DNA of 64,000 nucleotides from the NCBI GenBank assembly GCA_965203055.1, contig OZ241863.1, positions 3,034,545-3,098,544 on the forward strand, given 5' to 3'. How positions within the stretch are numbered: position 1 is the first letter of the stretch; each line of letters starts with the position of its first letter. The notes beneath the pieces are model-generated. The model did no database searches, was not told the origin of the DNA, and saw nothing but the letters and a program-made list of their open reading frames with translations. Below are positions 2,472 to 62,364 of this stretch, in pieces. The position numbers and the translations under genes were made by a program. This DNA is from Spirochaetia bacterium. GTDB lineage: Bacteria > Spirochaetota > Spirochaetia > SZUA-6 > Bin103.

Positions 2472-5189
2472 CTACTCCGCGGCGCGGGATACGTCCAGCC
2501 GCACCAGTTCCAGCAGCTCGTCGTCGGGCAGTTCGGTCAGGTTGATCTCCCCGCCGCCGGCCCCGGCGCCGGGCAGCAGGTCGGCCGCCAACTGCCGCTT
2601 GTCGCGGATCAGGCTATCGATCCGCTCCTCCACCGTGCCGCGGGTAATGAACTTGTGCACCAGGACGTTGCGCCGCTGGCCGATGCGGAAGGCGCGGTCG
2701 GTGGCCTGGTCTTCCACCGCCGGATTCCACCAGCGGTCGAAGTGGATCACGTGCGACGCCGCGGTCAGGTTCAGACCGGTGCCGCCGGCCTTCAGCGACA
2801 GCACCAGAAACGGCGGGCCGTCGTCGCGCTGGAACCGCTCCACCACGGCGCGGCGCTGCTTGACGCTCGTGCCGCCGTGCAGCGCCAGCCCGGCGGCGCG
2901 GAACAGAGTCGCCAGATAGTCGGCGAGCGGATCGATGATCTCCCGATATTGGGTGAAGATCAGCGCCTTCTCCTGGCGGTCCGCGAGTTCCTCGCAGATT
3001 TCCGCCAGGCGCTGGAACTTGCCGCTTGCCGCCGGGGCGTACTCGCCGTCGCCGGAGAGTTGGCTGGGGTGATTGCACACCTGCTTCAGGCGCAGCAGCG
3101 ACGCCAGCACCAGACCGCGCCGCGCCATGCGGTCGCCCGACTCGGCGGATTCCAGGGCGCGCTGCAGGGCCTGCACCACCTGCTGGTAGAGTCGGACCTG
3201 CGCCGGCGAGAGCTGGCAGTAGCGGGCGGTTTCGGTCTTCTCCGGCAGGTCGGCGATGATGCTGCGGTCGGTCTTGAGCCGGCGCAGGAGGTAGGGGCTC
3301 ACCAGCCGGCGCAACGGCGCGAACGGTTGCTGCGCCCGCGCCTGCAGGGTCTTGACGAAGGCGCGGAACACGCTTTGCGAGCCGAGCAGTCCGGGATTGA
3401 GGAAGTCGAACAGCGCCCACAGGTCGCCGAGCCGGTTTTCGACCGGCGTACCGGTCAGGGCCACGCGGGCGTCCGCGGGCAGCGCTCGGGCGGCGCGGCT
3501 CTGCCGGGTGGCCGGGTTTCTGATCGCCTGCGCCTCGTCCAGGATCACCAGCCGCCAGCGGATCTCCGCCAGCCAACTCTGGCGTACCAACATGGCGTAG
3601 GTGGTAACGACCAGGTCGGCGGCGGCCAGATGCTTCCGCGGCGCCGCGGCGATCTCCGCCAGGATCTGGCGGTCGTTCTCGGCCGGATGGAGGAAGCAGA
3701 GCCGCAGGGAGGGCGCGAACCGCTCCGCTTCGGCGCGCCAGTTGCCCAGCAGCGACGCCGGCACGACCAGCAGGGCGGGAGCGCGCCGCCGGGCTCCGTT
3801 CGCGGGCCGGTCGCACAGCAGCAGGGCCAGCACCTGGATCGTCTTGCCGAGCCCCATGTCGTCGGCCAGACAGGCGCCGAACCCCAGCCGGGTCAAAAAG
3901 TGCAACCAGGCCAGCCCGGCGCGTTGATAGGGCCGCAGCGTTCCCTGCAGGGCGGCGCCCAGTTCCGCTTCGCGCCGCTCCGAGCCGCCCGGCTGGCGCA
4001 GCCCGGCCAGCAGCTCGCGCATTGCGGCGCCGGCTTCGATCCGCACCCACGGCCGGTCGGCTTCGGTCTGTTCCTCCTGCTGCAGGTCGGCGGAGGCGCC
4101 GGCCAGCAGTCGCATCCCTTCGATGAAGGAGAGGCCGTCGCCGCCCGCCTGCTCCTGCAATGCTTCCCAGTGGGAGATCGCCTGTTGCAACCGTTCGCGG
4201 TCCACCTCCACCCACTGGTTGCGCAGCTGAACCAGGTTGCCCGCGCCGTCCCGCAACTCCTGCAGTTCAGCCGCCGACAGCGCGCGGTCGCCCAGGGCTA
4301 CCTCGACCTTGAAGTCTAGCATCGCCGCGGCGTCCACCCGCGCCGGGGTCTCCGTGCCGATCGTCACCGCCACCCGCGGCCGGGGCCGTTTGCGCCACCA
4401 GTTCGGCACCCGTACCGACAAGCCGCACCGCTCCAGATCGGGCACGCTCTGCAGGAAGCGGTAGGCCTGCTCGGGCGGCCACGTCAGCGCGCCATAGAGG
4501 TTGCCCGAGCCCGCCAGTTCCCGCACCCAGGAGCATGCCTTGGCAGCTTCCTCCACCGGCGACAGCAGCTTGAGCAGCGCGGCCCGGTCGTCCGCTCCGG
4601 CGTACTGTTGCAGGGCGTTGCGCAGCGGCGCGTGCTTCAACCGGCCGCCGGCGCCGAAGCCGGTGGAGTAGGTGGCCAGAAACGCGAACGGGCGCTCCTC
4701 ATCGGCGCGGTTCTCGGCCAGGTGAAAGCAGACCCGGCCCACCTGATGCCAGCGCGGCGCCCGCCGGCTCAGCAGCTCCTCCAGGCCGCCGGCCTCCGCC
4801 GCGGCGGCGCGGACCCACTGGCCGAGTTGCTCCCACAGCCGCTGCAGGAGCTCCGGCGACAGGTACTCTCCGCCCTCCATCGGCGGGGCGGTGAGCATCC
4901 AGGCCGCGCACTGGGCGGCGGTCGGCGGCGCCGCCAGGGGACATGCGGAATCCGGCCCCGCGGCCGCCGGCAGGTGGCACAAGGCGGTGAGATACTGCTC
5001 GGCGAATTGCTGCCAGTAGCGCAGCGCCGGGAACTCCTGCGCCGGCAGCCGTTCGGCCGCCAGGGTGAACAGCGCGCTGCGCCAGTCGCTCCGCATCGCC
5101 TCCGGGACGCCGCCCAGTTCGGCCGGCGCCGGCGCGTCCGCGGCCGGCTCCCAGCGCAACTGGCCGGCCGGCGTCAGCCGCACGCTCAT
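2472..5189 (-). CDS. SNF2-family DEAD/DEAH-box helicase with a long N-terminal SNF2-associated region
   Basis: 905 aa. Helicase motifs: LADDMGLGKT (motif I), DEAQAIRN (motif II), and the helicase-C motif FRIGQRRNVLVHKF. Partner of the SWIM protein. Confidence 0.85.
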   Translation of the reverse strand: MSVRLTPAGQLRWEPAADAPAPAELGGVPEAMRSDWRSALFTLAAERLPAQEFPALRYWQQFAEQYLTALCHLPAAAGPDSACPLAAPPTAAQCAAWMLTAPPMEGGEYLSPELLQRLWEQLGQWVRAAAAEAGGLEELLSRRAPRWHQVGRVCFHLAENRADEERPFAFLATYSTGFGAGGRLKHAPLRNALQQYAGADDRAALLKLLSPVEEAAKACSWVRELAGSGNLYGALTWPPEQAYRFLQSVPDLERCGLSVRVPNWWRKRPRPRVAVTIGTETPARVDAAAMLDFKVEVALGDRALSAAELQELRDGAGNLVQLRNQWVEVDRERLQQAISHWEALQEQAGGDGLSFIEGMRLLAGASADLQQEEQTEADRPWVRIEAGAAMRELLAGLRQPGGSERREAELGAALQGTLRPYQRAGLAWLHFLTRLGFGACLADDMGLGKTIQVLALLLCDRPANGARRRAPALLVVPASLLGNWRAEAERFAPSLRLCFLHPAENDRQILAEIAAAPRKHLAAADLVVTTYAMLVRQSWLAEIRWRLVILDEAQAIRNPATRQSRAARALPADARVALTGTPVENRLGDLWALFDFLNPGLLGSQSVFRAFVKTLQARAQQPFAPLRRLVSPYLLRRLKTDRSIIADLPEKTETARYCQLSPAQVRLYQQVVQALQRALESAESGDRMARRGLVLASLLRLKQVCNHPSQLSGDGEYAPAASGKFQRLAEICEELADRQEKALIFTQYREIIDPLADYLATLFRAAGLALHGGTSVKQRRAVVERFQRDDGPPFLVLSLKAGGTGLNLTAASHVIHFDRWWNPAVEDQATDRAFRIGQRRNVLVHKFITRGTVEERIDSLIRDKRQLAADLLPGAGAGGGEINLTELPDDELLELVRLDVSRAAE

Positions 5190-23114: not shown

Positions 23115-24190
23115 CCGGACGAGTCGGTCCTGCGCGCCGGCATCCCGCTCAGCCGTGCCGGCGGCTCCTGGTGAACGGCGGGGTGACTGATTTCCTCGGC
23201 GTGTCGTCGTCAGGTCCTGTCGCCGCCCGCCGCGGCCGCGCCGTTGGGTTGGCTCTTGAGCTTCTGATACTCCTGCTCGCCGATCCCGGTCGCCCGCTTG
23301 ATCAACGACCAGTCGACGCCGGTCCGCAGGAAACCGTCGATCATCTCCAGCCGCCCCTCGCGCTGGCCTTCCAGGCGGCCTTCGCGGTGGCCTTCCTGTT
23401 GGCCTTCGCTCCGGCCCTCGCGGTGCCGCCGTTCGGCAACCGCTCGCATCTCGTCGCGCCCTTCCTGGCGCAGCCGCTCGCCGCTCGTCATCAGCTCCCC
23501 TCCTGCCGCCGTGTGGCTCAGTATATCGCCCATCGCCTCGGACGTGTCCTCAGGTCCCGTCTCCGCGATCGGCTCGCCGGTATCGGGATCGATCGGCCCC
23601 CGATCGTAGTCAGGCCATCCGTTCCTGCCTGGGTAGTAGTAGTGGTCGTCATGGCCTGCCACCAACCTGAACGACCCATCTGCGGAAGCGATGCCTTCCA
23701 GATCGGCCAGATCGTCGTGCCAATCTGTATCGTCGAGATCCTCCGGTGGGGGCCGGTCGAGCGGTCGACCGGAGTAGTCGCTGTCTACGGAAGCTTTCTT
23801 CTTGCCCATCCCTTCGCCATCAATAGCCTGTCGATATAGTGCATGAACATCTTCATGTCGTCCTGACCGCCGCTTCCTTCCCGCTCCAAGTCGTCCAGCA
23901 GCGGCCGCATCCGCGCCCGCGCCTCCCGCATCGCGCGGTTGAAGGCGTGCATCATCGTCAGTTGCAGCAACCGCGCCCGGACGCTGCCGGCCGCCTGCGC
24001 CGGCGATATCTGAGTCTGGTCGAAGAGCACGTGCTCGAACCGGGGCAGCCATGGCCAGTCCCGCGTTGCGGCCGGGAACAGGTCAGCGAACTGCGGGGAG
24101 TGCTGCCAGCCGGTGGGCCCCTGGTAGAAGACCAGCGGCAGGATCGGGCGCAGGTAGCCGGCATCCTGGTGGTCCCGGCGGTCGTGCTCC
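23115..24190 (-). repeat. repeat copy B: Rpn-family remnant carrying a 272 bp mini-gene insertion
   Basis: Collinear with copy A at about 95% identity, except for an insertion at 23567-23838 encoding MGKKKASVDSDYSGRPL.... Confidence 0.7.
23210..24190 (-). pseudogene. truncated and interrupted Rpn-family nuclease/putative transposase fragment
   Basis: Same truncation point (YLRPILPLVFYQG) as copy A. The reading frame is disrupted by the 272 bp insertion. Confidence 0.6.
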
Positions 24191-36579: not shown

Positions 36580-36800
36580 TCATCTTACACTGGGACTTGG
36601 GCTTGGCCGCCAAGCGGCCTGACGCTTACCTGCATTTGGAAATGCGCCCAGTGCCCGCCGGCGCGCAGCCCGACATATTGACTAGTGATACCATAATGAA
36701 TACCATATGGCAACGGATATTACTATAGATCGTGTCGGACTCGTTGTGGTGCCGAGAACAGTTCTGTGACCGGGGAACTTGGTTCCTGGTACCGTTCCGG
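36580..36800 (+). repeat. composite repeat patch: R2 copy 2, then a GTGCCCGCCGGCGC palindromic module, then a degenerate copy of the AbrB-antitoxin promoter and 5' coding region
   Basis: 36655-36800 aligns with 56884-57060 (gtgcccgccggcgcgcagcc..ttgact..gataccat..gaataccatat..attac.atagatcg...). The AbrB-like frame is broken by stop codons. Confidence 0.65.
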
Positions 36801-36833
36801 CACCAATAGAAGAATTCCCCTGAGGAGGCGGTT

Positions 36834-37043
36834 ATGATGGGCGGTAATAAAATCAGAGAGATGATCGAATTACTTTCTCACTTTTTTTACTCTGATGAAG
36901 ATGGTTTTGATATTATTGTGGATAGAAATACTTTAACTTTCAGTGATCTTCGGCGGACTGATACTTTTTGTATAAAGACCAAACAAAATTTTGAGATTAC
37001 ACTAGATGAAAGATATGGGCTGCACTATAGACCAAGAAAATAG
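36834..37043 (+). CDS. AT-rich 69 aa orphan ORF (hypothetical)
   Basis: Strong RBS GAGGAGG 7 nt before ATGATG. Local GC is about 33% in a roughly 70% GC context. No recognisable domain. Confidence 0.4.
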   Translation: MMGGNKIREMIELLSHFFYSDEDGFDIIVDRNTLTFSDLRRTDTFCIKTKQNFEITLDERYGLHYRPRK

Positions 37044-37195
37044 AGAGCTAACTGCAAGAGCTATATCGCTTCGCTCGCTTCCGGATGACGGGCATTGCAG
37101 TGGTGACGCCGTGATCCACCCAACAGCGTGCTCACCACCCCGCTACCGGCCGTGTTTGCTACCGGTGACCCCAACGCAGGAGTAGAGGAGCTGGC

Positions 37196-38650
37196 GTGAT
37201 CATCAAGAGCAACCCCGGCCACGTCGATACCGAGCGGATCGTGCTGTTTCCGTTCGACGATCATGGCCTGCCGTTTCGTCACGGGGTGCGGCTCCATCTG
37301 GTGAGCCACCGGACGCCGGTGGACCGCACCCGCATCGTGGTTCCGCCCGGACCTCCCGGCGCGCCCGACAGCAAGCGCGTCATCTACTACGGCACGGTGC
37401 TCCGGGTCGGCGGCGAGCTGTGGATGTGGTATCTCGGACAGGGCGACGACGACCACTGGCACCAGCGCGTGTGCCTGGCCCGGAGCCGCGACGGCTACAC
37501 GTGGGAAAAGCCGCGCCTCGGGCTGGTGGAGTACCGCGGTTCCCGGCGCAACAACCTGGTGGACATGCTCGGCGGCGAGCACTCCATCGTCGCCTGCGTG
37601 GTGTACCACGACCCCGGCGATCCCGACCCCGAACGGCGCTTCAAGGCGGTGATCGAAGTCAAGGGCCGCGGCCAACAGTTCGGGGCGCTGTTCTCCGCCG
37701 ACGGCCTGCGCTGGCGCGAGTACGAGCTCGGTTCCGCCGCGCCGCATTGCGAGCCCACCGGCGGCATCAAGTTCAACGGCTGCTACTACCTCAGCGGCCA
37801 CGGAGGCAGCCACTTCGGCGCGCCGCGCCAGTTGGTGACCTACGTCTCATACGACTTTGAGCACTGGATCGAAGCCTCGTGCCGGGGCCTGCAGCGGGAC
37901 GACGTTCCCCCGCGGCCCTGCCGGGAGACGTTCGCGGGCGGCGAGCAGGTCCACGTCGGCGCGGGGTTGTGGAACCGGGGCAACGTGATCCTCGGGCTGT
38001 ACGGGCAGTGGCACGGTCCCGCCAATGACGACCGCCGCCACGTGGAGATGGACCTGGGGCTGGTGGTGAGCATCGACGGGCTGCACTACAGCGAGCCGAT
38101 CCCCGATTTTCCCATGGTGGCCGCGGCCGAGGACGGCATGCACCACCTGCCGCAGCCGTGGCAGTTCAAGCACCCCGCCCTGGTGCAGGGGCAGGGGTTC
38201 GAGAATCTAGGCGACGAGACCCTGTTCTGGTACGCGCCGTGGCCGGAGCAGTTGAGCGACGGCGTGCGCATCGCCTCCTGGCAGCGCGACCGCCTCGGCT
38301 ACCTGCAGCCGTTCGACCGCCGGCAGTTGCAGATTCCGAACGGCTGCCACGTGATCTCCGCTCCCATCGACCTGGGCGGCCGCCCGGCGCAGGTCGCCTT
38401 GAACGTCGCCGGCCTCTCGCAGTACGCGCAGGTGACGGTCGAGGTGCTGGATGAACGGTTCCGCCCGGTGGACGGCTACTCGCACCGCGACTGCCGGCCT
38501 CTCGAGTCGGGCCTCAAGCAACCGGTCACTTGGCGCGGCCACGCCGTCGTGGACGGGACCGGCGGGCCGATTCGGCTACGGGTGAACTACGCCGGAATCC
38601 GCCCCGAGGACCCGCAACTGTACGCCATCTACGTCGAACCGGCCGCGTAA
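37196..38650 (+). CDS. glycoside hydrolase family 32/43-like (5-bladed beta-propeller) protein
   Basis: 484 aa with GH32/43/130-superfamily-like sequence features (WMWYLGQGDDD, RDGYTWEKP, LFSADGLRWR). GTG start. Confidence 0.5.
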   Translation: MIIKSNPGHVDTERIVLFPFDDHGLPFRHGVRLHLVSHRTPVDRTRIVVPPGPPGAPDSKRVIYYGTVLRVGGELWMWYLGQGDDDHWHQRVCLARSRDGYTWEKPRLGLVEYRGSRRNNLVDMLGGEHSIVACVVYHDPGDPDPERRFKAVIEVKGRGQQFGALFSADGLRWREYELGSAAPHCEPTGGIKFNGCYYLSGHGGSHFGAPRQLVTYVSYDFEHWIEASCRGLQRDDVPPRPCRETFAGGEQVHVGAGLWNRGNVILGLYGQWHGPANDDRRHVEMDLGLVVSIDGLHYSEPIPDFPMVAAAEDGMHHLPQPWQFKHPALVQGQGFENLGDETLFWYAPWPEQLSDGVRIASWQRDRLGYLQPFDRRQLQIPNGCHVISAPIDLGGRPAQVALNVAGLSQYAQVTVEVLDERFRPVDGYSHRDCRPLESGLKQPVTWRGHAVVDGTGGPIRLRVNYAGIRPEDPQLYAIYVEPAA

Positions 38651-53117: not shown

Positions 53118-53804
53118 GTGGAACGGCCGCACTATCACCAACACCGCCGGCGGCTGCGCGAACGCTTCCTCAAGAGCGGCGTGGCCGGGTTCGCCGAGCA
53201 TGAGGTCATCGAGCTGATCCTGACGCTGGCCATTCCCCGCCGCGACGTAAAGGAACCCGCCAAGGCGCTGCTCGCGCGCTTCGGCAACCTGCGCGGCGTC
53301 ATGGATGCGCCGCGTTCCGAATTGCAGGCCGTAGCGGGCGTGGGCGAAGTCGCCGCAACCGCGCTGCAAGTCATACGCGCGGTCGCCACGCTCTACCTGC
53401 AGCAGGCGTCCGAGGACGAAGCGGAAGCGCTGAGCGATCCCCGGCGGCTGAGCGACTTCTGGCGCATGCGGATCGGCGCCCTGAAGCACGAAGTGTTCGC
53501 CGTGGCATATCTGGATTCGGCGGGCCGGCTGCTCCGCGACGGCGTGGAGACCCTGCAGGAGGGCACCATCGACCGCGCCGCGGTGTATCCCCGCCGGGTG
53601 GCGGCGGCCGCGCTCCGGCGGGAGGCGGCGGCCATCGTGCTGGCGCACAATCATCCGAACGGCCTGCTGCAGCCGAGCGAGCACGACAAGCTGATCACGC
53701 GCGCGATCGTGCTGGCCGCCGAGACCGTCGGGCTGCGCGTCGTCGATCACCTGATCGTGGCCGCGCAGGACACCTTCAGCTTCCGGCAGGCCGGCCTGCT
53801 GTGA
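53118..53804 (+). CDS. radC: RadC-family JAB/MPN domain protein
   Basis: HhH N-terminal region and JAMM-like motif HNHPNGLLQPSEHD. GTG start. Confidence 0.75.
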   Translation: MERPHYHQHRRRLRERFLKSGVAGFAEHEVIELILTLAIPRRDVKEPAKALLARFGNLRGVMDAPRSELQAVAGVGEVAATALQVIRAVATLYLQQASEDEAEALSDPRRLSDFWRMRIGALKHEVFAVAYLDSAGRLLRDGVETLQEGTIDRAAVYPRRVAAAALRREAAAIVLAHNHPNGLLQPSEHDKLITRAIVLAAETVGLRVVDHLIVAAQDTFSFRQAGLL

Positions 53805-53887: not shown

Positions 53888-54628
53888 ATGCCGTTTACCG
53901 TCGAAGACTTCCAAGACTTGGTGCAACTGCTCGATGAGCGTCCGGAGTGGCGGTCGGAACTGCGTCGTCTGGTATTGAGCGACGAGTACCTGGCGCTGCC
54001 GGAGCAGCTTGCCGAGTTCCGGCGCGACATGGAACAGCGCTTTATCGAGGTCGAGAAGCAGATCGCCGACCTGCGGCGCGACATGGAGCAGCGTTTTTGC
54101 GAAGTCGAGAAGCAGATCGCTGAACTGCGGGGCGACACCGACGTCCACTTCCATCGTGTCAACGTGCAGATCGGGCAACTCAAGGGCGAGAACCTGGAGC
54201 GGCGCTACCGGGAACGCGCGCACGCCTACTTCGGCCGGCTGCTCCGCAAGGGCCGGGTGGTAGGGTCGCAAGAACTGTCCGATCTCCTGGAGGAAGCGGC
54301 CGACCGCGGCGTCCTGTCGCAGAGCGACCGGGAGGAGGTGGCGTGGGCCGATCTGATCATGCGCGGCCGGTGGCGCGCTGACGGCCGGCAGGTCATGGTG
54401 CTCGCGGAGGTCTCGTGGGTCGTCGACCGCAACGACGTGCGGCGGGCCGTGGACCGGGCGGCGCTGCTGAGCCGGCTGGGCACGCCGGTGGTGCCGGTGG
54501 TCGCCGGAGACTCCGTCACCGAGCGCGCGGCGGACATGGCGCGCAGCCGCAACGTGTGGCAAATGCTCGATGGCCGATTGGTTGAACCGGATGGCATGAG
54601 CCAGACTGAGTTGGCAGCGCGTCCGTAA
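53888..54628 (+). CDS. hypothetical coiled-coil protein (DUF3782-like?) with an internal 22 aa duplication
   Basis: EFRRDMEQRFIEVEKQIADLRR immediately repeated as DMEQRFCEVEKQIAELRG. The C-terminal region has a possible restriction-endonuclease-like motif (VLAEVSWVVDRND). Confidence 0.4.
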   Translation: MPFTVEDFQDLVQLLDERPEWRSELRRLVLSDEYLALPEQLAEFRRDMEQRFIEVEKQIADLRRDMEQRFCEVEKQIAELRGDTDVHFHRVNVQIGQLKGENLERRYRERAHAYFGRLLRKGRVVGSQELSDLLEEAADRGVLSQSDREEVAWADLIMRGRWRADGRQVMVLAEVSWVVDRNDVRRAVDRAALLSRLGTPVVPVVAGDSVTERAADMARSRNVWQMLDGRLVEPDGMSQTELAARP

Positions 54629-54637
54629 GCGGCCGCG

Positions 54638-56146
54638 ATGACACCCGCTGATCTGGAAGTCCTCATCCAGCAGGGCGAAGGCACGACGCTCGAATTCAAG
54701 GAAGCGGTGTCGTCGTCGTTCGCGCGGGAGCTCGTGGCGCTGGCCAACACCGTCGGCGGGAAGATTTTGCTAGGTGTACGGGACGATCATTCCATCGTCG
54801 GGATCCGGGACGCCAACGAGCTGCGCGCCCGACTCCAGGGCCTTGCCCGCAACTGCGATCCTCCGGTGAAGGTGCGCGTGGAGCCGGTCGGCAACGTGCT
54901 GGTGGTCCACGTACGGGAGAGCGACGCCAAACCGGTGCAGTGCAGCGACGGGTTCTTCAGTCGCCAAGGCGCGGTAACGCAGAAGCTGAACCGAAACGAG
55001 ATCCGCGACTTCTTCCGGGTCGAAGGGGCGATCCGGTTCGACTTGGCGGTTTGCCCCCGGTTCCGCTATCCGGAGGACTTCGACCGCGAGAAGTACGACC
55101 GGTGGGTAGGTTACTCCGGCATCACCGGACGGCCGCCGGTGGAGGACACTCTGGTCAACATCGAGGCGGCCGAGCGGGCTGGCGACCGGCTGCTGTTCCG
55201 CAACGCCGGCGTGCTGTTCTTCGCCCGGAACGTGCGGCACTTCTTCCCGGAGGCATATATCACCTGTCTGTTGGGCCGGGGGACCGACAAGGTTCACATT
55301 CTGGATCGCAAGGACTTCGCCGGGGGGACCGTGGCCGACATCGAGGAAGCCATGCGCTTCATCGAGCGCAATACCCGCACCGCCTACCGGATCGAGGGCC
55401 TGCGCCGGGAAAACGTCCCGGAGTACCCGATGAACGCGCTGCGCGAGGCGATCACCAACGCGGTCATGCATCGCGACTGGTTCTACAACGGCACCAACGT
55501 GTTCGTGGAGCTCTACGCCGACCGCATCGAGGTGATCAGTCCCGGCAGCCTGCCCCCCGGCCTGACCGTTGCCGAGCTGGGGCGCCGGAGCGTGCGGCGC
55601 AACCCGCTCATCTCCGACCTGCTCCACCGCATCGAGTTCATCGAGATGGCCGGCACCGGCATCCGGCGCATCCGGGAGGAAGCGCGGGCGCGCCGCTGCC
55701 CGGAGCCGACGTTCGAGGCCAACAGCTTCGTGACCGTCACCTTCCGGCCCAACCCCGAGGTGCGGGCGGCGACCGGCGATGATGGGACTACCGGGGAAGT
55801 CACCGGGGATGTTACCGGGGTAGTTACGCCGCAGGAGACGCATCAAACCCCTTCCCGGGCAACCACCGGGGAAGTCACCGGGGATGTTACCGGGGAAGTC
55901 ACCGGGGAAGTCGCGGCGGTTGTCCGGCTGCTGCGAGCGATGGCCGGCGACATGACCAGGCAGCATCTCCAGGAGGCGCTTGGCCTGAAGCACGAGGACC
56001 ACTTCCGCAGTGCGTACCTGCAGCCCGCTCTGCGCGCCGGCCTGGTAGAAATGACCATCCCCGACAAGCCGCGCAGCCGCAGCCAGCGCTACCGGCTGAC
56101 GCCCGCCGGCAGCCGCTACCTGAGACGAACGGAGGAGACCCCGTAG
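54638..56146 (+). CDS. AlbA_2 (Schlafen-like) + HATPase_c_4 (RecG C-terminal-like) putative DNA-binding / ATP-binding regulator
   Basis: The N-terminus TLEFKEAVSSSFARELVALANTVGGKILLGV is typical of AlbA_2. The C-terminal HATPase_c_4-like region is ...NALREAITNAVMHRDW. A linker carries TGEVTGDVTG heptad-like repeats. Confidence 0.7.
   Translation: MTPADLEVLIQQGEGTTLEFKEAVSSSFARELVALANTVGGKILLGVRDDHSIVGIRDANELRARLQGLARNCDPPVKVRVEPVGNVLVVHVRESDAKPVQCSDGFFSRQGAVTQKLNRNEIRDFFRVEGAIRFDLAVCPRFRYPEDFDREKYDRWVGYSGITGRPPVEDTLVNIEAAERAGDRLLFRNAGVLFFARNVRHFFPEAYITCLLGRGTDKVHILDRKDFAGGTVADIEEAMRFIERNTRTAYRIEGLRRENVPEYPMNALREAITNAVMHRDWFYNGTNVFVELYADRIEVISPGSLPPGLTVAELGRRSVRRNPLISDLLHRIEFIEMAGTGIRRIREEARARRCPEPTFEANSFVTVTFRPNPEVRAATGDDGTTGEVTGDVTGVVTPQETHQTPSRATTGEVTGDVTGEVTGEVAAVVRLLRAMAGDMTRQHLQEALGLKHEDHFRSAYLQPALRAGLVEMTIPDKPRSRSQRYRLTPAGSRYLRRTEETP
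55789..55911 (+). repeat. 12-nt tandem repeats (accggggaagtc / accggggatgtt) in two blocks inside the AlbA_2/HATPase gene
   Basis: Block 1 is three units at 55789-55824 and block 2 is four units at 55864-55911. They encode TGEV/TGDV repeats. Confidence 0.8.
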
Positions 56147-56166
56147 ATGGCGAAGATCGATGGCCC
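56061..56166 (+). repeat. about 95 bp direct duplication (copy 1) of the AlbA_2-gene 3' end plus the mod 5' start; copy 2 is at 57221-57306
   Basis: gccgcagccagcgctaccgg...ccgctacctgagacgaa(c/t)ggaggagac(c/g)ccgtagATGgcgaagatcga occurs at both sites. Copy 1 ends the AlbA_2 gene and copy 2 immediately precedes mod #2. Confidence 0.8.
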
Positions 56167-56950
56167 GCGTACTATAGGTGCCACGGCGTCGCGCAGGCTC
56201 TCAGCCCCTCGCGTGGGATCGACGTTGCCGGTCCGTATCCGCCAAGGCCAGTTCCTCGACGGCGGCCATAGCACGCTCAGGACCGCTGGCTCGACCAGGG
56301 CCTGCGCGGGCGCGCAGCGGTCGGCGACGGCTTGCGCGGCGGCAGCTTCTCGCCGGTGTACGCGTCCCACTCGTTGCCGTCAGCGTCGGCCATGATAAAG
56401 CGGTCCTCGCGGCGCACCCTGCCGCTCGCGAGCGACTCCCGGACCCCTTCCGGCGTCAGCTCCCCGAGCGGGCGCCCGGAGTAGTCGCTGTCTACGGCTT
56501 GGGTTTCGTCGGCTTCTTCTTTCTGCTTGCCCATCTGCGACTCATCAGGAGCTTGTCATTGGCTTGCGCGATCGGCACGAACTCGTCATACGGCCACTGC
56601 CTGACCCGCAACACCCTGTTCTTTGTGGGTGAGCATCTTGTCGAGCTGCGCCTTTAGGACCGATGACCCGCTCCGCCACGCAATATACTGCGCATACGCC
56701 CGCGCCCACAACTCGGCCTCGTGGGTCAGGTAGGTATCGCCCTGCAGGAGCGCATACCTCTTGCTCTGCAGGATCGCCTTATGACCGCCTGCATCGTCCG
56801 AGTCGACTCCCGCTTAGACTCGAGGTCGTCTATTTCGGCGACGCCCTTCTTTGACATGCCCGACGTCAGTACGCGCCGGCGCGAGTGCCCGCCGGCGCGC
56901 AGCCTGGATGCCTGTTTGACTGATGATACCATGGCGAATACCATATAGCC

Positions 56951-57220
56951 GTGGTCATTACCATAGATCGCGACGGGCGCGTCGTAGTGCCGAAGCAGTT
57001 CCGTGACCGCTTCAACTTGGTTGCTGGTACGCAGTTGGAGATCGAAGCCGCAGGTGACGGGCTGAAGCTTCGTAAGGTCGTAAGCGAGCCGACGCTGGTT
57101 CGGAAGAAAGGGTTCCTGGTGCATCACGGCACTGCTCGTCCCGACATCGATATCGTCGAGTTCATCCGTGCCGAGCGCGACGCCCGCAGCCGTCATATTG
57201 CCACGGACACCACGGATTGA
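56951..57220 (+). CDS. AbrB/MazE/SpoVT-family antitoxin-like DNA-binding protein
   Basis: The N-terminus (V)ITIDRDGRVVVPKQFRDRFNLVAGTQLEIE is the swapped-hairpin AbrB signature. GTG start. An upstream TTGACT and three ACCATA/ATACCAT repeats suggest an autoregulated promoter. Confidence 0.65.
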   Translation: MVITIDRDGRVVVPKQFRDRFNLVAGTQLEIEAAGDGLKLRKVVSEPTLVRKKGFLVHHGTARPDIDIVEFIRAERDARSRHIATDTTD

Positions 57221-57288
57221 TGCGCAAGCCGCAGCCAGCGCTACCGGCCGGCCGCCGCTACCTGAGACGAATGGAGGAGACGCCGTAG

Positions 57289-59247
57289 ATGGCGAAGATC
57301 GACGTCACCCGGACCGAGCTGGTCTGGCCGGGCAAGTACAACGAAGACGGCACGCTCAATGAAGCGCCGCGCGTCAACCTGCCGTTCCAGGTCATCGAGA
57401 CCGTCAACGAGAGCCGCGCCACCCGCGAGGCGCGCAAGACGAAGGGCATGTCATTATTCGACGTGTACGAGGGCACCGAAGGCGATACCTTCGAGGAGGG
57501 TTGGCGGAACAAGCTGATCTGGGGCGACAATCTGCTGGTGATGGGCTCGCTCCTGGAGAAGTTCGCCGGAAAGATCGATCTGATCTACATCGACCCACCA
57601 TTCGCGACCGGAGCAGACTTCTCATTTACGGCGCCAATAGGAGAGTCCGGGGAAGAAGTGTTCAAGGCGCAATCTGCCATTGAGGAGAAAGCATATCGTG
57701 ATACATGGGGAAGTGGGCATTCATCTTATGTTTCCATGCTCCATGATCGCTTGATGCTTATACGAGAACTCCTTTCAAGTACCGGCAGCGTATATGTACA
57801 CATTGATCCCCGGGTAGACTATCTTGTCAGAGGTATTCTCGATGACGTATTCGGTCAAGAGTCATTTCGTAACGTCATTGTCTGGAAGCGAGACGTTGCA
57901 GGTAAAGGAGCCAAGAGAACCAGCAGTCAATGGCCACGAAATGCAGACACAATAATTTGGTATGGTAGGTCTCCGGCATCGTGGACGTTCGAACAACAGT
58001 ATGCGCAGTTGAGCGATGATCAGAAGAAACCATATCGATACCACGATTCGAACGGCCGTCGGTATAAGGCAGTTCAACTCGGTGACTACTCCGAAAGATC
58101 AATTGCAATTATGGTTCAGAAAGGGATGATTCATACTTCCTCCACTGGTAAGATGTATAAGAAATACTACTTGGATGAAGCTCGCTCGACAATCGACTGT
58201 ATTTGGACCGATATTCTTGGTTTTGGAACAAAGACCGCCTCGCACGAGATTCAAGGATTCCCTACTCAGAAGCCTGAGATGCTACTTGAACGTATTGTCG
58301 CTGCGTCATCCAAGAAGGGGGACCTCGTAGCCGACTTCTTCTGTGGTTCGGGAACTACCCTTGCCGTGGCCGAGAAGCTCGGGCGCCGCTGGATCGGCTG
58401 CGACCTGGGCCGCTGGGGAATACACGTCACCCGCAAGCGGCTACTTGGTATCGAAGACTGCAAGCCGTTCGAAATTCTGAATCTCGGCAAGTATGAACGG
58501 CAGTACTGGCAGGGCGCGACCTTCAGCGAACAAGGCTCCGAGCAGGCGCTCTACGAGTACCTCGCGTTCATCCTCAAGCTGTACGGCGCGCAACCGGTCG
58601 CCGGCATGGCGCACGTGCACGGCAAGAAGCATCGGGCCATGGTCCACGTCGGCGCGGTGGATGCGCCGGTGACTATCGACGAGATCGAACAGGCGGTCAA
58701 CGAATGCCAGCGGCTCCGCCAGAACGAGCTGCACGTGCTAGGTTGGGAGTGGGAGATGGGGCTGGCTGGCCCCAACAACGACCTGCGCAAGGGCGGATTG
58801 ATGCACGAATCGGCCAAGGCGCGCGGCGTCAAGCTCATCCTGCTGCAGATACCGCGCGAGGTGATGGAGCAGCAGGTGCGCGACGAGAACGACGTGCGCT
58901 TCTTCGAGCTGGCGTACCTGGAAGCGGCGGTCGAGACTCCGGATACGCTGACCGCGCAGGTGCGGCTCGAGGACTTCGTCATTCCCAACGACGAGCTGAT
59001 CCCGGACGAGGTGCGCGGCAAGGTCCGGCAGTGGTCCGATTACATCGACTACTGGGCGGTGGATTGGGACTTCCGCAACGACACCTTCATGCAGGGCTGG
59101 GTAACCTACCGCACGCGCAAGGAGCGCAGTCTGCCGCTCGCCTCCGATCCGCACCGCTACGAATCTCCCGGCACCTATCAGGTGCTGATCAAGGTAATCG
59201 ACATCTTCGGCAACGACACGTCGCAATGCTACCCGGTGACGGTATGA
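57289..59247 (+). CDS. mod: type III RM Mod subunit #2 (DNA methyltransferase) with a low-GC central target-recognition region
   Basis: Motif IV IDPPFATGADF, motif I FFCGSGTTLAVAEKLGRRWIGCDL. The N-terminus is homologous to Mod #1. 57660-58340 is about 45% GC while the flanks are about 68% GC. Confidence 0.85.
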   Translation: MAKIDVTRTELVWPGKYNEDGTLNEAPRVNLPFQVIETVNESRATREARKTKGMSLFDVYEGTEGDTFEEGWRNKLIWGDNLLVMGSLLEKFAGKIDLIYIDPPFATGADFSFTAPIGESGEEVFKAQSAIEEKAYRDTWGSGHSSYVSMLHDRLMLIRELLSSTGSVYVHIDPRVDYLVRGILDDVFGQESFRNVIVWKRDVAGKGAKRTSSQWPRNADTIIWYGRSPASWTFEQQYAQLSDDQKKPYRYHDSNGRRYKAVQLGDYSERSIAIMVQKGMIHTSSTGKMYKKYYLDEARSTIDCIWTDILGFGTKTASHEIQGFPTQKPEMLLERIVAASSKKGDLVADFFCGSGTTLAVAEKLGRRWIGCDLGRWGIHVTRKRLLGIEDCKPFEILNLGKYERQYWQGATFSEQGSEQALYEYLAFILKLYGAQPVAGMAHVHGKKHRAMVHVGAVDAPVTIDEIEQAVNECQRLRQNELHVLGWEWEMGLAGPNNDLRKGGLMHESAKARGVKLILLQIPREVMEQQVRDENDVRFFELAYLEAAVETPDTLTAQVRLEDFVIPNDELIPDEVRGKVRQWSDYIDYWAVDWDFRNDTFMQGWVTYRTRKERSLPLASDPHRYESPGTYQVLIKVIDIFGNDTSQCYPVTV

Positions 59248-59583
59248 ACGAGCTGCACCTTACGCCCGAGGAGAGCGCATGGTTGCGCGCATATCGGAGT
59301 CTGATACGTCGGCGGTACCCGGAAACGGTGGCGCGAATGCTCGTCTATGGTTCCAAGGCGCGCGGCGACGCCCACGCCGACAGCGACCTGGACGTTCTCA
59401 TCATCGTCCGGAACGACGCCGCCGACGAAGCGGGAGCTGCGCGGAATCGGCTACGATCTGGCGGCAACCTCCCACGCGGTGCCGTCGATCCTGGCGTATT
59501 CGCTGAAGGAATGGCAGGAACGGAGCGCACGGGGGTACCCGTTCCAACGCGCGGTCGAGCGCGACGGCGTGTCCGTCCTGTGA
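59244..59583 (+). pseudogene. MNT-type nucleotidyltransferase #2 between mod and res, carrying a +1 frameshift near 59425
   Basis: Frame A reads MNELHLTPEESAWLRAYRSLIRRRYPETVARMLVYGSKARGDAHADSDLDVLIIVRND. Frame B continues RELRGIGYDLAATSHAVPSILAYSLKEWQERSARGYPFQRAVERDGVSVL*. The ATG overlaps the mod stop (ATGA), and the res ATG lies 10 nt after frame B's stop. Confidence 0.65.
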
Positions 59584-59592
59584 AATCGGACG

Positions 59593-62364
59593 ATGGCTGA
59601 GTCGGTCGTTTCTTACGACCGGGACCTGCCGCAGATTGCCGGCCGTCTGCCGTGGGAGGCGCCGTGCTCCTGCCTGGTGAAGGACGACGCGGCGCGCACC
59701 GGCTGGCGCGAGGATCGTTCCGGGCGGCGCCCGAGCCAACTGCTGCTGGTGCCGAAGATTCGCGACGCGGTGGACTCATGGCGCGCGGCCGGGTACGACG
59801 GCGCGTCCGGCGTGACCAAGCGGCTGTTCGCGTACTGGTTCGAGGAGGATCACGAAGTCTCAGGCTTCGACGCGCCGTTCCGGTACTATTTCTGCCAGCG
59901 CGAGGCGATCGAGACACTGGCGTGGCTGGTGGAAATCGCCGGCAGGCGCGACGCGCTCGCGTTGATCCGGGACTACGGGACGATCTCCGTCACCGATCGG
60001 TTTCAGACCGCGATGGACGGCCGGCGGCAGCTTCGCCGTTATGTCCCGGAACTGGATAAGGACGTCGAGCAGGAGCTGCCGCCGGAGAACTTGCGCCGCT
60101 ACGCCCTCAAGCTGGCGACCGGCGCCGGCAAGACCTGGGTGATGGCGATGGCGGTCGTGTGGTCGCGCTTCCACCGGCTGCGCGTGGCAGACTCCGAACT
60201 CTCCACCAACTTCCTCATCGTCGCCCCCAACGTGATCGTCTATCAGCGGCTCGAAAGGGACTTCGCCAACAACAATATCTTCCACCGGTTGCCGCTGATC
60301 CCGCCGGAGTGGAAGGGCAGCTTCACCCAGAAAGTGATCCTGCGCGGCGAGGCCGCCGAACCCGCTCCGTCCGGGAATCTGTTTCTCACCAACATCCAGC
60401 AACTCTACGAGTCGCGCGACGATACCTGGACTCCCGCGAACCCCGTCGAGGCGCTATTGGGAGAGAAACCGGCGCAGGATCTCGCGGGGTCCGCCGGGCG
60501 TTCCATGCTGGAACGGGTCAAGTCGCTCCCCGATCTGGTGGTGATGAACGATGAGGCGCACCACGTGCACGACGAGGACCTGGCGTGGAGCAGGTCGCTG
60601 CTCGGCGTTCACGGTGGGCTGCCGCAGGGGGTCGGCGCCTGGCTCGACTTCTCGGCCACGCCCAAGGACCGGAACGGCATGTACTTCCCGTGGACGGTGT
60701 GCGACTACCCGCTGGCGCAGGCGGTGGAGGACCGGATCGTCAAGGCGCCGATCATCGTCACCAACGAGGACGACGCCGGGCAGCCGGCGCAAGACCCGGA
60801 GGGGGTGACGAAGGACAATGTCGCCGCCAAGTACGGCTACTGGCTGCAAGCCGCGGTACGGCGCTGGCAGGAGCACCGCGCCGCGTACGGCCCGCTCGGC
60901 ATCAAACCGGTGCTCTTCATCATGGCGGAGAAGAACGTCTACGCCGACGCGTTGGGCGAGTATCTCGTCACGACCGCAGGATTCAAGACGTCAGAGGTAC
61001 TGGTGATCCACACCGACACCACCGGCGAGGTGCGGAAGGGAGACCTGGAAAAGGCGCGGCAGGCGGCGCGCGACATCGACCGCCGCGGCAGCCGGATCAA
61101 GGCGATCGTGAGCGTGATGATGCTGCGCGAGGGCTGGGACGTGCGCAACGTGACGGTCGTGCTGGGGCTGCGGCCGTTCACCGCCAAGGCGGAGATCCTG
61201 CCGGAGCAGGTGATCGGGCGCGGGCTGCGGCTCATGACGCAGGTGAGCCCGGACCGCACGCAGACGCTGGAGGTGCTCGGCACGCGCAATCTGCTCAACG
61301 TGCTGCGCGAGCAACTGGAAGCCGAGGGAGTCGGCGTGGCCAGCACGGCGCAGGGTCCGCCGCCGCCGGTGACCATCGCACCGGTGCGGGAGCGGCTGGC
61401 GCACGACATCGCGATCCCCCTCACCAAGCCGAGTCTGACGCATGACTCCCGCAAGCTGTCGGAGCTCGACGTGCAGTCGCTCATTCCGATCTACGAATCG
61501 AACGATCTGGCGGAACCGGTGCGAATCACGATGCGGATGGAGTTCGCGACCACGGAGACCGAAGTCCATCAGGCGGCCTTGGCGCCGGAGGGGAGTCCGG
61601 CGCGGGAGCTCCTGGCCGGCATCGCCGGCGAGGTGAGCAAGCGGACCGGGCTCACCAACCGGTTCGCCGAGCTCTACCCGATCGTGCGGCGGTACGTGGC
61701 GGAGCGCTGCTTCGGCGGGCCGGTCGACGTGGAGGATTCCGGGATTCGATCGCACCTGACGCGGCTGGAACTGCGCGAAGGAATCGCCCGCTATCTGGCC
61801 GGGGCGATCGGCGAGCTCACCGTCGAACGCCGCTCGCTGCAGTTCGAGCGCACCGACTTCCGGCTGTCCGCTACCAGACCGTTCAGTTGGCGGCGCAATC
61901 TGCCGCCCCTCGAAGCCGACAAGACCGTGTTCAACTACGTGGCGACCTACAACGAGTTCGAGCGCAGCTTCGCCGAGTTCCTGGACCGCGCGGCCGACGT
62001 GCCGCGCTTCGCCGCGCTGGGCACCACCGATCAGGGCAGCTCCGGCACCGCGTTCCGCGTCGACTACCTGAAGGCGAGCGGCGCCATCGGCTTCTACTAT
62101 CCCGACTGGGTAGCCGTCCAGCAAACCGAAGACGGCGCCGAAGACGGCGAGGTGCACTGGATCATCGAAACCAAGGGCCGCGTCTGGGAAGGCACCGACC
62201 GGAAGGACGCCGCAATGCGCGAGTGGTGCCGGCGCGTGCACGACGCCGCCGGCATCGTCTGGCGCTACCTGCGCGTCAACCAAGCCGAGTTCCGCAAGCT
62301 CCCGCCCGACTCCCCGACCCTCAAGGCCCTGATCGCGCAACTCTCCGACGACGCCCTGTCTTGA
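59593..62364 (+). CDS. res: type III restriction endonuclease Res subunit #2
   Basis: LATGAGKT (Walker A), VMNDEAHH (DEAH box), C-terminal PD-(D/E)xK-like VHWIIETKG. 923 aa. Confidence 0.85.
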   Translation: MAESVVSYDRDLPQIAGRLPWEAPCSCLVKDDAARTGWREDRSGRRPSQLLLVPKIRDAVDSWRAAGYDGASGVTKRLFAYWFEEDHEVSGFDAPFRYYFCQREAIETLAWLVEIAGRRDALALIRDYGTISVTDRFQTAMDGRRQLRRYVPELDKDVEQELPPENLRRYALKLATGAGKTWVMAMAVVWSRFHRLRVADSELSTNFLIVAPNVIVYQRLERDFANNNIFHRLPLIPPEWKGSFTQKVILRGEAAEPAPSGNLFLTNIQQLYESRDDTWTPANPVEALLGEKPAQDLAGSAGRSMLERVKSLPDLVVMNDEAHHVHDEDLAWSRSLLGVHGGLPQGVGAWLDFSATPKDRNGMYFPWTVCDYPLAQAVEDRIVKAPIIVTNEDDAGQPAQDPEGVTKDNVAAKYGYWLQAAVRRWQEHRAAYGPLGIKPVLFIMAEKNVYADALGEYLVTTAGFKTSEVLVIHTDTTGEVRKGDLEKARQAARDIDRRGSRIKAIVSVMMLREGWDVRNVTVVLGLRPFTAKAEILPEQVIGRGLRLMTQVSPDRTQTLEVLGTRNLLNVLREQLEAEGVGVASTAQGPPPPVTIAPVRERLAHDIAIPLTKPSLTHDSRKLSELDVQSLIPIYESNDLAEPVRITMRMEFATTETEVHQAALAPEGSPARELLAGIAGEVSKRTGLTNRFAELYPIVRRYVAERCFGGPVDVEDSGIRSHLTRLELREGIARYLAGAIGELTVERRSLQFERTDFRLSATRPFSWRRNLPPLEADKTVFNYVATYNEFERSFAEFLDRAADVPRFAALGTTDQGSSGTAFRVDYLKASGAIGFYYPDWVAVQQTEDGAEDGEVHWIIETKGRVWEGTDRKDAAMREWCRRVHDAAGIVWRYLRVNQAEFRKLPPDSPTLKALIAQLSDDALS

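Follow-up and report, generated by a model that had tools for sequence, protein, structure and literature searches.

Schlafen proteins of the pSlfn-HisKinase-HTH architecture make up 19% of the prokaryotic Schlafens and rank among the commonest bacterial forms, the catalytic motif of prokaryotic Schlafens being E-x4-(E/D)-x-K (relevant passages of PMC13056530). In the passages of that work and of bioRxiv 10.64898/2026.05.29.728809 that deal with these proteins, also called 'Schlatpases', the architecture has no known activity or trigger; Schlafen genes are placed near defence genes in general terms, with one type I restriction-modification (RM) association in Poribacteria, and a conserved stop/start link to a type III Mod-MNT-Res system is not described. 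Type III RM systems of the EcoP15I kind consist of a Mod methyltransferase (N6_N4_Mtase/MTase_III), then a Res subunit with a ResIII helicase and a C-terminal endonuclease domain, and they exchange the variable target-recognition domain of Mod between strains. Here, we analysed a 64-kb stretch of a metagenome-assembled Spirochaetia genome (contig OZ241863.1; hereafter the window, whose positions serve as coordinates) in which a predicted Schlafen gene of this architecture, AlbA_2, and the mod gene of a type III RM system are kept apart by unrelated DNA lying between two copies of their own boundary. The best explanation, to which we assign a probability of roughly 0.8, is that a contiguous cassette underwent one episode of illegitimate recombination, followed by neutral decay.

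Gene families at the locus were assigned by Pfam, NCBIfam and PADLOC scans. The AlbA_2 gene (54638..56146, forward strand) is intact and encodes 502 amino acids (aa) with SLFN_AlbA_2 (PF04326, E=7.2e-18), HATPase_c_4 of the GHKL type (PF13749, E=3.7e-22) and Fic-like_C winged helix-turn-helix (wHTH; PF21247, E=1.7e-26) domains. Its translation carries E14-x4-E19-x-K21 (E14-GTTL-E19-F-K21), PADLOC matches it to pAgo-associated Schlafen/GHKL regions, and an exact-protein look-up returned no match. In domains and motif, the predicted protein conforms to the pSlfn-HisKinase-HTH/Schlatpase definition, and it shares with those proteins the defence-gene neighbourhood and the wide horizontal transfer described in the same passages. 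On the other side of the insert lie, on the same strand, the 652-aa Mod methyltransferase (57289..59247; PADLOC MTase_III PDLC03633, E=9.4e-120; Pfam N6_N4_Mtase, E=1.3e-38), an MNT-type nucleotidyltransferase (NTase) gene (59244..59600; Pfam NTP_transf_2) and an intact 923-aa Res (59593..62364; Pfam ResIII, E=2.8e-13; PADLOC REase_III, E=6e-17). The best NCBIfam match of Res is the BPTD_3080 family of restriction endonucleases, yet far under its cut-off (268 versus 800 bits), and its RE_endonuc match is weak and below cut-off (E=1e-3). By these sequence features, Mod and Res would form a type III RM pair, in the order mod then res. The locus differs from EcoP15I-like systems by the NTase between mod and res, to which distant relatives add an open reading frame (ORF) that looks HEPN-like by eye, and by the upstream Schlafen-GHKL-wHTH gene, whose stop is joined to the mod start in relatives.

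The duplicated AlbA_2/mod boundary, which a preliminary description of this DNA had claimed, is real. Gapped local alignment of 56040-56200 with 57190-57340 scored 126, against 18.3 +/- 2.9 (maximum 35) for shuffled sequences, and the window contains the 20-mer CCGTAGATGGCGAAGATCGA at exactly two sites, where 0 would be expected. The unit, first given as 95 bp with ~75 nt of AlbA_2 and 15 nt of mod, is refined to 94 nt, that is, the last 77 nt of the AlbA_2 gene, TAG and 14 nt of mod (ATGGCGAAGATCGA); both sites stood, with outer limits (56061-56166 and 57221-57306) a few bases too generous. Copy 1 (56067-56160, forward strand, 94 nt) holds the functional AlbA_2 3' end, the TAG and a truncated mod (56147-56160), and is nearly invariant across sister strains. 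Copy 2 (57227-57302, forward strand, 76 nt) consists of a decaying AlbA_2 3'-end relic, then the real mod start, and departs from copy 1 in the window by three substitutions, a 10-nt deletion common to all sister strains and an 8-nt deletion found only in the window lineage. In L069 and L070 (L-numbers label the compared loci and contigs), it carries ~6 extra substitutions and an in-frame TAG. In the least-decayed versions (L078, L079 and L091), only 2-3 substitutions and the 10-nt deletion set copy 2 apart from copy 1, which argues for two copies of identical or almost identical sequence when the event took place. The insert between them covers 56161-57226 and measures 1,066 nt, first given as ~1.05 kb.

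Uninterrupted counterparts of this boundary exist elsewhere. The AlbA_2 protein was scanned against one genome per GTDB species, yielding 67 loci from many phyla at 44-84% identity (at least 58% in all but one), whose neighbours were read by tblastn with the window proteins and by inspection of the junctions. At 12 of these loci (L004, L008, L020, L023, L032, L035, L041, L049, L050, L053, L065 and L066), from Acidobacteriota, Gammaproteobacteria, Binatia and other lineages, mod starts 5-18 nt past the last aligned AlbA_2 residue; the stop/start reads TAGATG, TAAATG or overlapping TAATG, and most of the 12 run on into NTase-Res. The same Mod/Res family lies within 10 kb of AlbA_2 in ~22/67 loci. 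Among the nine loci with complete genes, pairwise identities of AlbA_2 and Res correlate (r=0.84, Mantel p=2e-4) and those of Mod do not, which fits swapping of the Mod specificity domain. The uninterrupted junctions in 12 genomes and the AlbA_2/Res co-variation thus lend support, at the level of synteny, to an AlbA_2 gene anciently joined stop-to-start with mod-NTase-res. The preliminary description had proposed this ancestral junction, and its search in related genomes did not refute it. The further proposal of a four-gene operon is supported for the AlbA_2-mod-NTase-res order and is otherwise approximate, given the frameshifted NTase of the window and the extra HEPN-like ORF of distant relatives. 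Nor is the link obligatory: about one third of the close AlbA_2 homologues are tied to this RM family, and others adjoin gyrA, amidohydrolases, a PLD-SNF2 protein or an Eco57I-type methylase.

Within mod, a low-GC block (57711-58255; 46-50% versus ~65% in the flanks) corresponds to the target-recognition region. In sister strains, it is replaced by unrelated sequence, yielding Mod proteins of 652, 624, 605 or 604 aa, from which it follows that specificity is being swapped inside one population. Imported alleles therefore recombine at this locus, a point in favour of an alternative origin of the duplication, in which a foreign vapB-AlbA_2 relic-mod-NTase-res segment would have been joined by homology at its right end and by illegitimate recombination at its left, 14 nt into the resident mod. 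Such an import could have proceeded by homology-facilitated illegitimate recombination or by Campbell-type integration of a circular fragment with the 94-nt junction; the latter would yield exactly the direct repeats observed, and independently truncated AlbA_2/mod relics do occur elsewhere (L082, with ~29 nt of mod, L002, L054 and L065). However, the least-decayed copy 2 barely differs from copy 1, and the nearest allele outside the clade (L082) is ~12% divergent, so the donor would have to be nearly the same strain, and one that already held AlbA_2 as a 94-nt relic flanked by vapB. We consider this import quite unlikely.

As to its content, the insert reads as a mosaic of two main pieces and not as a mobile element. 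The insertion first described is present, not as one element but as at least two unrelated pieces, and its AbrB-type gene is an orphan vapB. The first 55 nt (56161..56215) had no match in any locus or collection searched, including a scan of JGI metagenomes with a 22-mer from this stretch; they probably continue the adjacent phage fragment, whose reference contig (L086) ends there. That fragment (56216..56863, reverse strand, ~650 nt) is an inverted piece of a Mu-like phage head-morphogenesis module, made up of the 3' part of a MuF-like gene and the next small gene, with 92% nucleotide identity to positions 4525-5115 of the IMG/VR contig L086 and also 92% to L077. On L086, genes for a large terminase, a Mu-type portal (E=1.5e-91) and a 495-aa Phage_Mu_F protein precede a 70-aa ORF. 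The small gene corresponds to the mini-gene already noticed in the window, p85 (56277..56534, reverse strand), a homologue of the small phage gene 3' of the MuF-like gene with 87% aa identity to the 70-aa ORF; when IMG/VR was scanned again, with p85, the same 5.1 kb contig alone came back, and JGI metagenome scans returned none. The frameshifted fragment of the preliminary description is likewise there, refined to ~56492-56863 (reverse strand): a MuF-like/LPD1-type pseudogene that retains the 3' ~40% of the gene, is truncated at its 5' end just past the HEIGH motif of intact homologues (P0001-P0014) and contains two frameshifts. It matches the PHROG 'minor head protein and DNA pilot' (E=2e-5). 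L069 lacks one of the frameshifts of the window: tblastn aligns residues 25-115 of the reconstructed product to it as a single match. Two single-base differences separate the window from L069 in this stretch. Neither p85 nor the MuF-like fragment had a PADLOC or NCBIfam match.

A Mu-like prophage was considered and rejected, as the window lacks the terminase, the portal and the N-terminal 60% of MuF. Pfam and NCBIfam scans of the insert ORFs found no transposase or recombinase family, and the insert ends have no terminal inverted repeats. With these results and a duplication of 94 nt, insertion of a transposon, an insertion sequence or a miniature inverted-repeat transposable element was rejected as well. 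Flanking direct repeats are shared with transposable-element insertions, but those duplicate 2-14 nt of target, and the Mu-like DNA here is an internal head-gene fragment rather than a Mu end.

The right piece of the insert (~56882-57226, forward strand) comprises vapB and its upstream region, cut within vapC. The palindromic module noted earlier, GCGCCGGCG-N8-CGCCGGCGC (56873..56898), belongs by its right half to the native vapB upstream region; AGTGCCCGCCGGCGCGCAGCC is found again at ~36650, upstream of a decayed vapB paralogue. A promoter-like site, TTGACT-17-TACCAT (56916..56950, forward strand; 1 found versus 0.2 expected, a consensus match only), overlaps ATACCAT direct repeats spaced 12 nt, a putative VapB operator. 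Three such repeats had been claimed, of which those at 56926 and 56938 are exact and the third reads ATTACCAT at ~56959. ATACCAT occurs five times in the 64 kb, two of the others lying in the vapB remnant at 36688/36700, and the promoter-like site and repeats are conserved upstream of vapB in L071, L088 and that paralogue. The AbrB/MazE-like gene proposed from the sequence was recovered at 56951..57220 (forward strand) as an 89-aa vapB antitoxin gene (Pfam PF04014, E=1.4e-10; TIGR01439, E=1.8e-10), starting with GTG in the window and ATG in sister strains. Its 160 homologues are mostly 89 aa long, and its nucleotide identity to the vapB genes of native vapBC loci is 75-79%. In such loci (L088 and L089), a PIN toxin gene of 143 aa begins in overlap with the stop codon of vapB. 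Of that toxin gene, only the first 7 nt, ATGCGCA, remain here (57220..57226, forward strand), the intact vapC start in L071 and L088 being TGATGCGCAC... (M-R-T-L-F-D-T-S), and tblastn of the native PIN protein found no match in the window. Because vapC ends after 7 nt, the gene is an orphan antitoxin and not a toxin-antitoxin (TA) system; a VapBC system at the insert was rejected, the antitoxin being present and the adjacent PIN toxin absent. In comparison with VapBC type II TA loci, which share the standard 89-aa vapB, the autoregulatory-looking promoter and repeats, and in native homologues an overlapping PIN gene, the copy in the insert has a truncated toxin, and its vapB looks neutral and is deleted in sister strains.

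The vapC remnant marks the right breakpoint of the insert, GCGCA|AGCC, with a 2-nt (CA) microhomology to AlbA_2 sequence. This join resembles that of a duplication, as would be left by a two-step route in which a segment from the AlbA_2 3' end to 7 nt into a downstream vapC was tandemly duplicated and most of the first copy, mod-NTase-res and what followed it, was then deleted, the phage fragment and vapB staying behind between the two junction copies. Tandem duplication and imprecise deletion are the commonest bacterial rearrangements, and large deletions are demonstrably frequent at this locus. Such a route would need vapBC on the far side of Res, yet neither vapBC nor Mu-like phage DNA lies downstream of Res in the window or any sister contig. 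The native vapBC site of this genome family is instead ~20 kb upstream, beside p484: at 36650..36792 (forward strand), upstream of the p484 gene (37196-38650), the window retains a decayed vapB promoter, the ATACCAT repeats and ~80 nt from the 5' end of vapB (148 nt aligned with 56884-57030 at 76% identity, E=1e-23), and the native order in L088 is MR_MLE_C-vapB-vapC-p484. The two-step route is therefore unlikely.

We favour a single episode of illegitimate recombination in a contiguous cassette. According to this proposal, the ancestor would have carried a horizontally mobile cassette, RadC ... AlbA_2(Schlafen-GHKL-wHTH)-Mod-MNT-Res, with a TAGATG join. In the ancestor of the strain cluster, one event would have placed the unrelated 1,066 nt and duplicated 94 nt of junction, the inserted patchwork consisting of ~650 nt of inverted phage head module, short filler and a vapB with its native promoter/operator cut 7 nt into the toxin gene. 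The event may have been a single complex templated insertion or break repair, by replication template switching or by end-joining with fill-in of a staggered break, as this would explain a long duplication flanking DNA of several sources. Template switching or break repair also fits multi-source, partly inverted, non-mobile DNA with a 2-nt microhomology at the one readable breakpoint. Indeed, the insert shares with complex templated insertions (of the template-switch or microhomology-mediated break-induced replication type, or end-joining filler DNA) and with Campbell scars the direct target duplication flanking the insert, the lack of mobility genes, the several sources, one of them inverted, and the microhomology; a duplication of 94 nt is long for end-joining and short for efficient homologous (Campbell) integration. 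Afterwards, the insert and copy 2 would have decayed as junk through frameshifts, small deletions, ratios of non-synonymous to synonymous substitution (dN/dS) near 1 and large independent deletions, with copy 1, Mod and Res meanwhile under purifying selection. Strains with the full insert would probably transcribe mod-res from the captured vapB promoter and no longer together with AlbA_2, and deletion variants would again have mod-res downstream of what remains of AlbA_2. Uncoupling may have relaxed selection on AlbA_2.

The sister strains document this decay. Eight sister contigs, 94-100% identical to the window at the locus and from at least four ENA metagenome samples, all carry the scar (L001, L069, L070, L078, L079, L080, L081 and L091), so the insertion would be older than the sampled strain diversity. 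The full insert is kept in L001 and L069. L070 has lost 56554-56827, with p85 partly deleted or rearranged; L078 has lost 56029-57129 and with it copy 1 and the AlbA_2 C-terminus; and L079, L080, L081 and L091 share a deletion of 56144-57098 together with N-terminal AlbA_2 deletions. Five sister contigs have thus independently lost most of the insert, and the vapB 3' tail, the vapC heptamer, copy 2 and mod are retained in 8/8. The empty site, p246-AlbA_2 joined to mod (p246 being the gene preceding AlbA_2), was not found in the clade. A chimera of misassembled strain variants might be suspected in a metagenome-assembled genome, the more so as several structural variants (L070, L078, L080 and L081) come from one sample (ERZ25070167). 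Yet the same junctions recur base for base in independent assemblies from at least four samples, on long-read contigs of 0.8-4.1 Mb with up to 238x coverage, and the two copies have diverged from each other, unlike products of assembly collapse or duplication, so we judge the chance of an artefact to be next to nil.

Nei-Gojobori estimates of dN/dS separate the inserted genes from their surroundings. Within the clade, vapB gives 0.87 (8 non-synonymous and 3 synonymous changes), against 0.10-0.16 at native loci, and p85 gives 0.95 in comparison with the phage copy of L086, outside the clade; within-clade values are 0.13 for Res and 0.23 for AlbA_2. Since the inserted genes have ratios near 1 and native vapB, Res and AlbA_2 low ones, the former appear to behave as neutral DNA. 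AlbA_2 is truncated in 5/9 sister sequences, Mod is intact in most and Res in some (L080 has a split Res, and L091 degraded versions of both Mod and Res), which suggests relaxed selection on AlbA_2 after uncoupling or, alternatively, that AlbA_2 is dispensable for RM.

These data also bear on an adaptive role of the insert, whereby VapB would act as a controller-type repressor of mod-res, like the C proteins of type II RM systems, from its own autoregulated promoter and independently of AlbA_2. The intact 89-aa ORF, the promoter-like site and conserved operator-like repeats directly upstream of it, and the retention of the vapB 3' tail and copy 2 ahead of mod in all sisters would agree with such a role. 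However, the promoter and the AbrB DNA-binding domain are deleted in 5/9 sequences, most of which keep Mod intact (L078 and L079 also Res), the short ORF bridging vapB to mod is broken by a TAG in L069/L070, and a dN/dS of 0.87 in the clade compares with 0.1 at native loci. A regulatory insert is accordingly very improbable.

Several observations weigh against a single illegitimate event followed by neutral decay. The vapB ORF is intact in four sequences and its dN/dS rests on only 11 substitutions, so some residual function is possible. No relative above 90% nucleotide identity has the empty site, and the pre-insertion state is derived solely from loci of other lineages at 72-82% protein identity. 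The source of the 55-nt left end was not found, and microhomology at the left breakpoint is unreadable. The present data do not tell a one-step mechanism from multi-step routes, and the promoters are called solely by match to a consensus.

As a product of illegitimate recombination, the insertion is an ordinary scar in decay, and its worth is that of a marker: the ancestral stop/start junction has survived in the duplicated boundary, which pointed the way to the joined genes in a dozen genomes of several phyla. The captured phage DNA and orphan antitoxin would serve as neutral filler and not as new functions. The more interesting by-product is the conserved mobile cassette of a Schlafen-GHKL-wHTH gene with type III RM, whose fixed RM partner offers a concrete, testable context for the pSlfn-HisKinase-HTH architecture. 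We tentatively suggest, with doubt prevailing, that the Schlafen-GHKL-wHTH gene may be a working, translationally coupled part of a mobile type III RM cassette, AlbA_2-Mod-MNT(-HEPN)-Res. If so, the cassette would combine two layers of defence, with an abortive effector of the tRNase type wired to restriction, and the strain cluster would be a natural experiment in which AlbA_2 decays once junk uncouples mod, with Mod and Res mostly staying intact. The sister series, with its full insert, three deletion derivatives, decaying AlbA_2 and swapped Mod domains, documents the erosion and rewiring of a defence island in one natural population.

Further features adjoin the cassette. A RadC-like JAB gene (53118..53804, forward strand; Pfam RadC, E=1.5e-34) lies upstream of AlbA_2; RadC homologues occur within 10 kb of AlbA_2 in ~20/67 related loci and are a frequent companion of the cassette. 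Between the two, p246 (53888..54628, forward strand) encodes a coiled-coil-like 246-aa protein found only in sister contigs, and thus clade-specific, with no family in Pfam or PADLOC. Its gene contains 54-nt tandem repeats (54003-54142), and the start of L070 carries a partial second copy of it. Downstream of mod, the NTase gene of the window, compared with its intact 112-aa counterparts in L069 and L078, has a 2-nt deletion near 59424, common to L001, that shifts the frame after about codon 62; another frame still encodes the correct C-terminal half. In the NTase-Res gap of L008 (13582-14076) and L053 (13678-14172) lies the HEPN-like ORF, recognised by eye and not family-scanned, of 164 aa as listed, with a start that may be further in. 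It is absent from the window and from all sister strains; if it is HEPN, an MNT-HEPN pair would be embedded in a type III operon. Such a pair, resembling a type VII TA system, was rejected for the window, with its frameshifted MNT gene and no HEPN ORF. A frameshift in Res, considered on account of a 1,223-aa Res called in L001, was rejected too, 923 aa being the normal length and also that of L078. L001 differs from the window by only two single-base homopolymer indels (window 62353 and 63014; L001 4125-7796), which make its Res look like a 1,223-aa protein and are probably errors of low-coverage (3x) long reads.

Some minor observations complete the picture. In L079 (8900-9100), and also in L080, L081 and L091, a deletion joins the AlbA_2 frame, immediately ahead of its stop codon, to the VapB C-terminus, the toxin-binding tail, and these fused versions have no N-terminal Schlafen domain. 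L082 (3724-3810) has an 86%-identical AlbA_2 gene in another genomic context, followed by a ~29-nt relic of the mod start (ATG to ACG) and no RM genes; the same cassette has here lost mod-res independently. That L082 shares the left breakpoint of the window was rejected, the alignment reflecting independent truncation of mod after ~29 nt. At the native vapBC position, an AT-rich stretch (~36830-37050) stands in the place of vapC after the decayed vapB remnant. Elsewhere in the window, the start of a short ORF (23741-23809, reverse strand; MGKKKK..VDSDYSGRPL) resembles the p85 N-terminus (55% over 29 aa) in an unrelated context. Within AlbA_2, 12-nt tandem repeats (ACCGGGGAAGTC-like, encoding a TGEV/TGDV linker) separate the GHKL and wHTH domains at 55787-55926; the protein measures 514 aa in L069 and 502 aa in the window, and the homology of L078 to the window is broken across this repeat. 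Extra C-terminal AlbA_2 matches in L024, L026, L056, L049 and L061 were considered as recurrent junction duplications, an option rejected on inspection of L026 and L056, where they are in-frame tandem duplications. The linker and wHTH module is repeated there two or three times within one ORF (L026 10001-11758; L056 10470-12119), and many of the 560-600-aa AlbA_2 homologues returned by the protein search may share this duplicated module.

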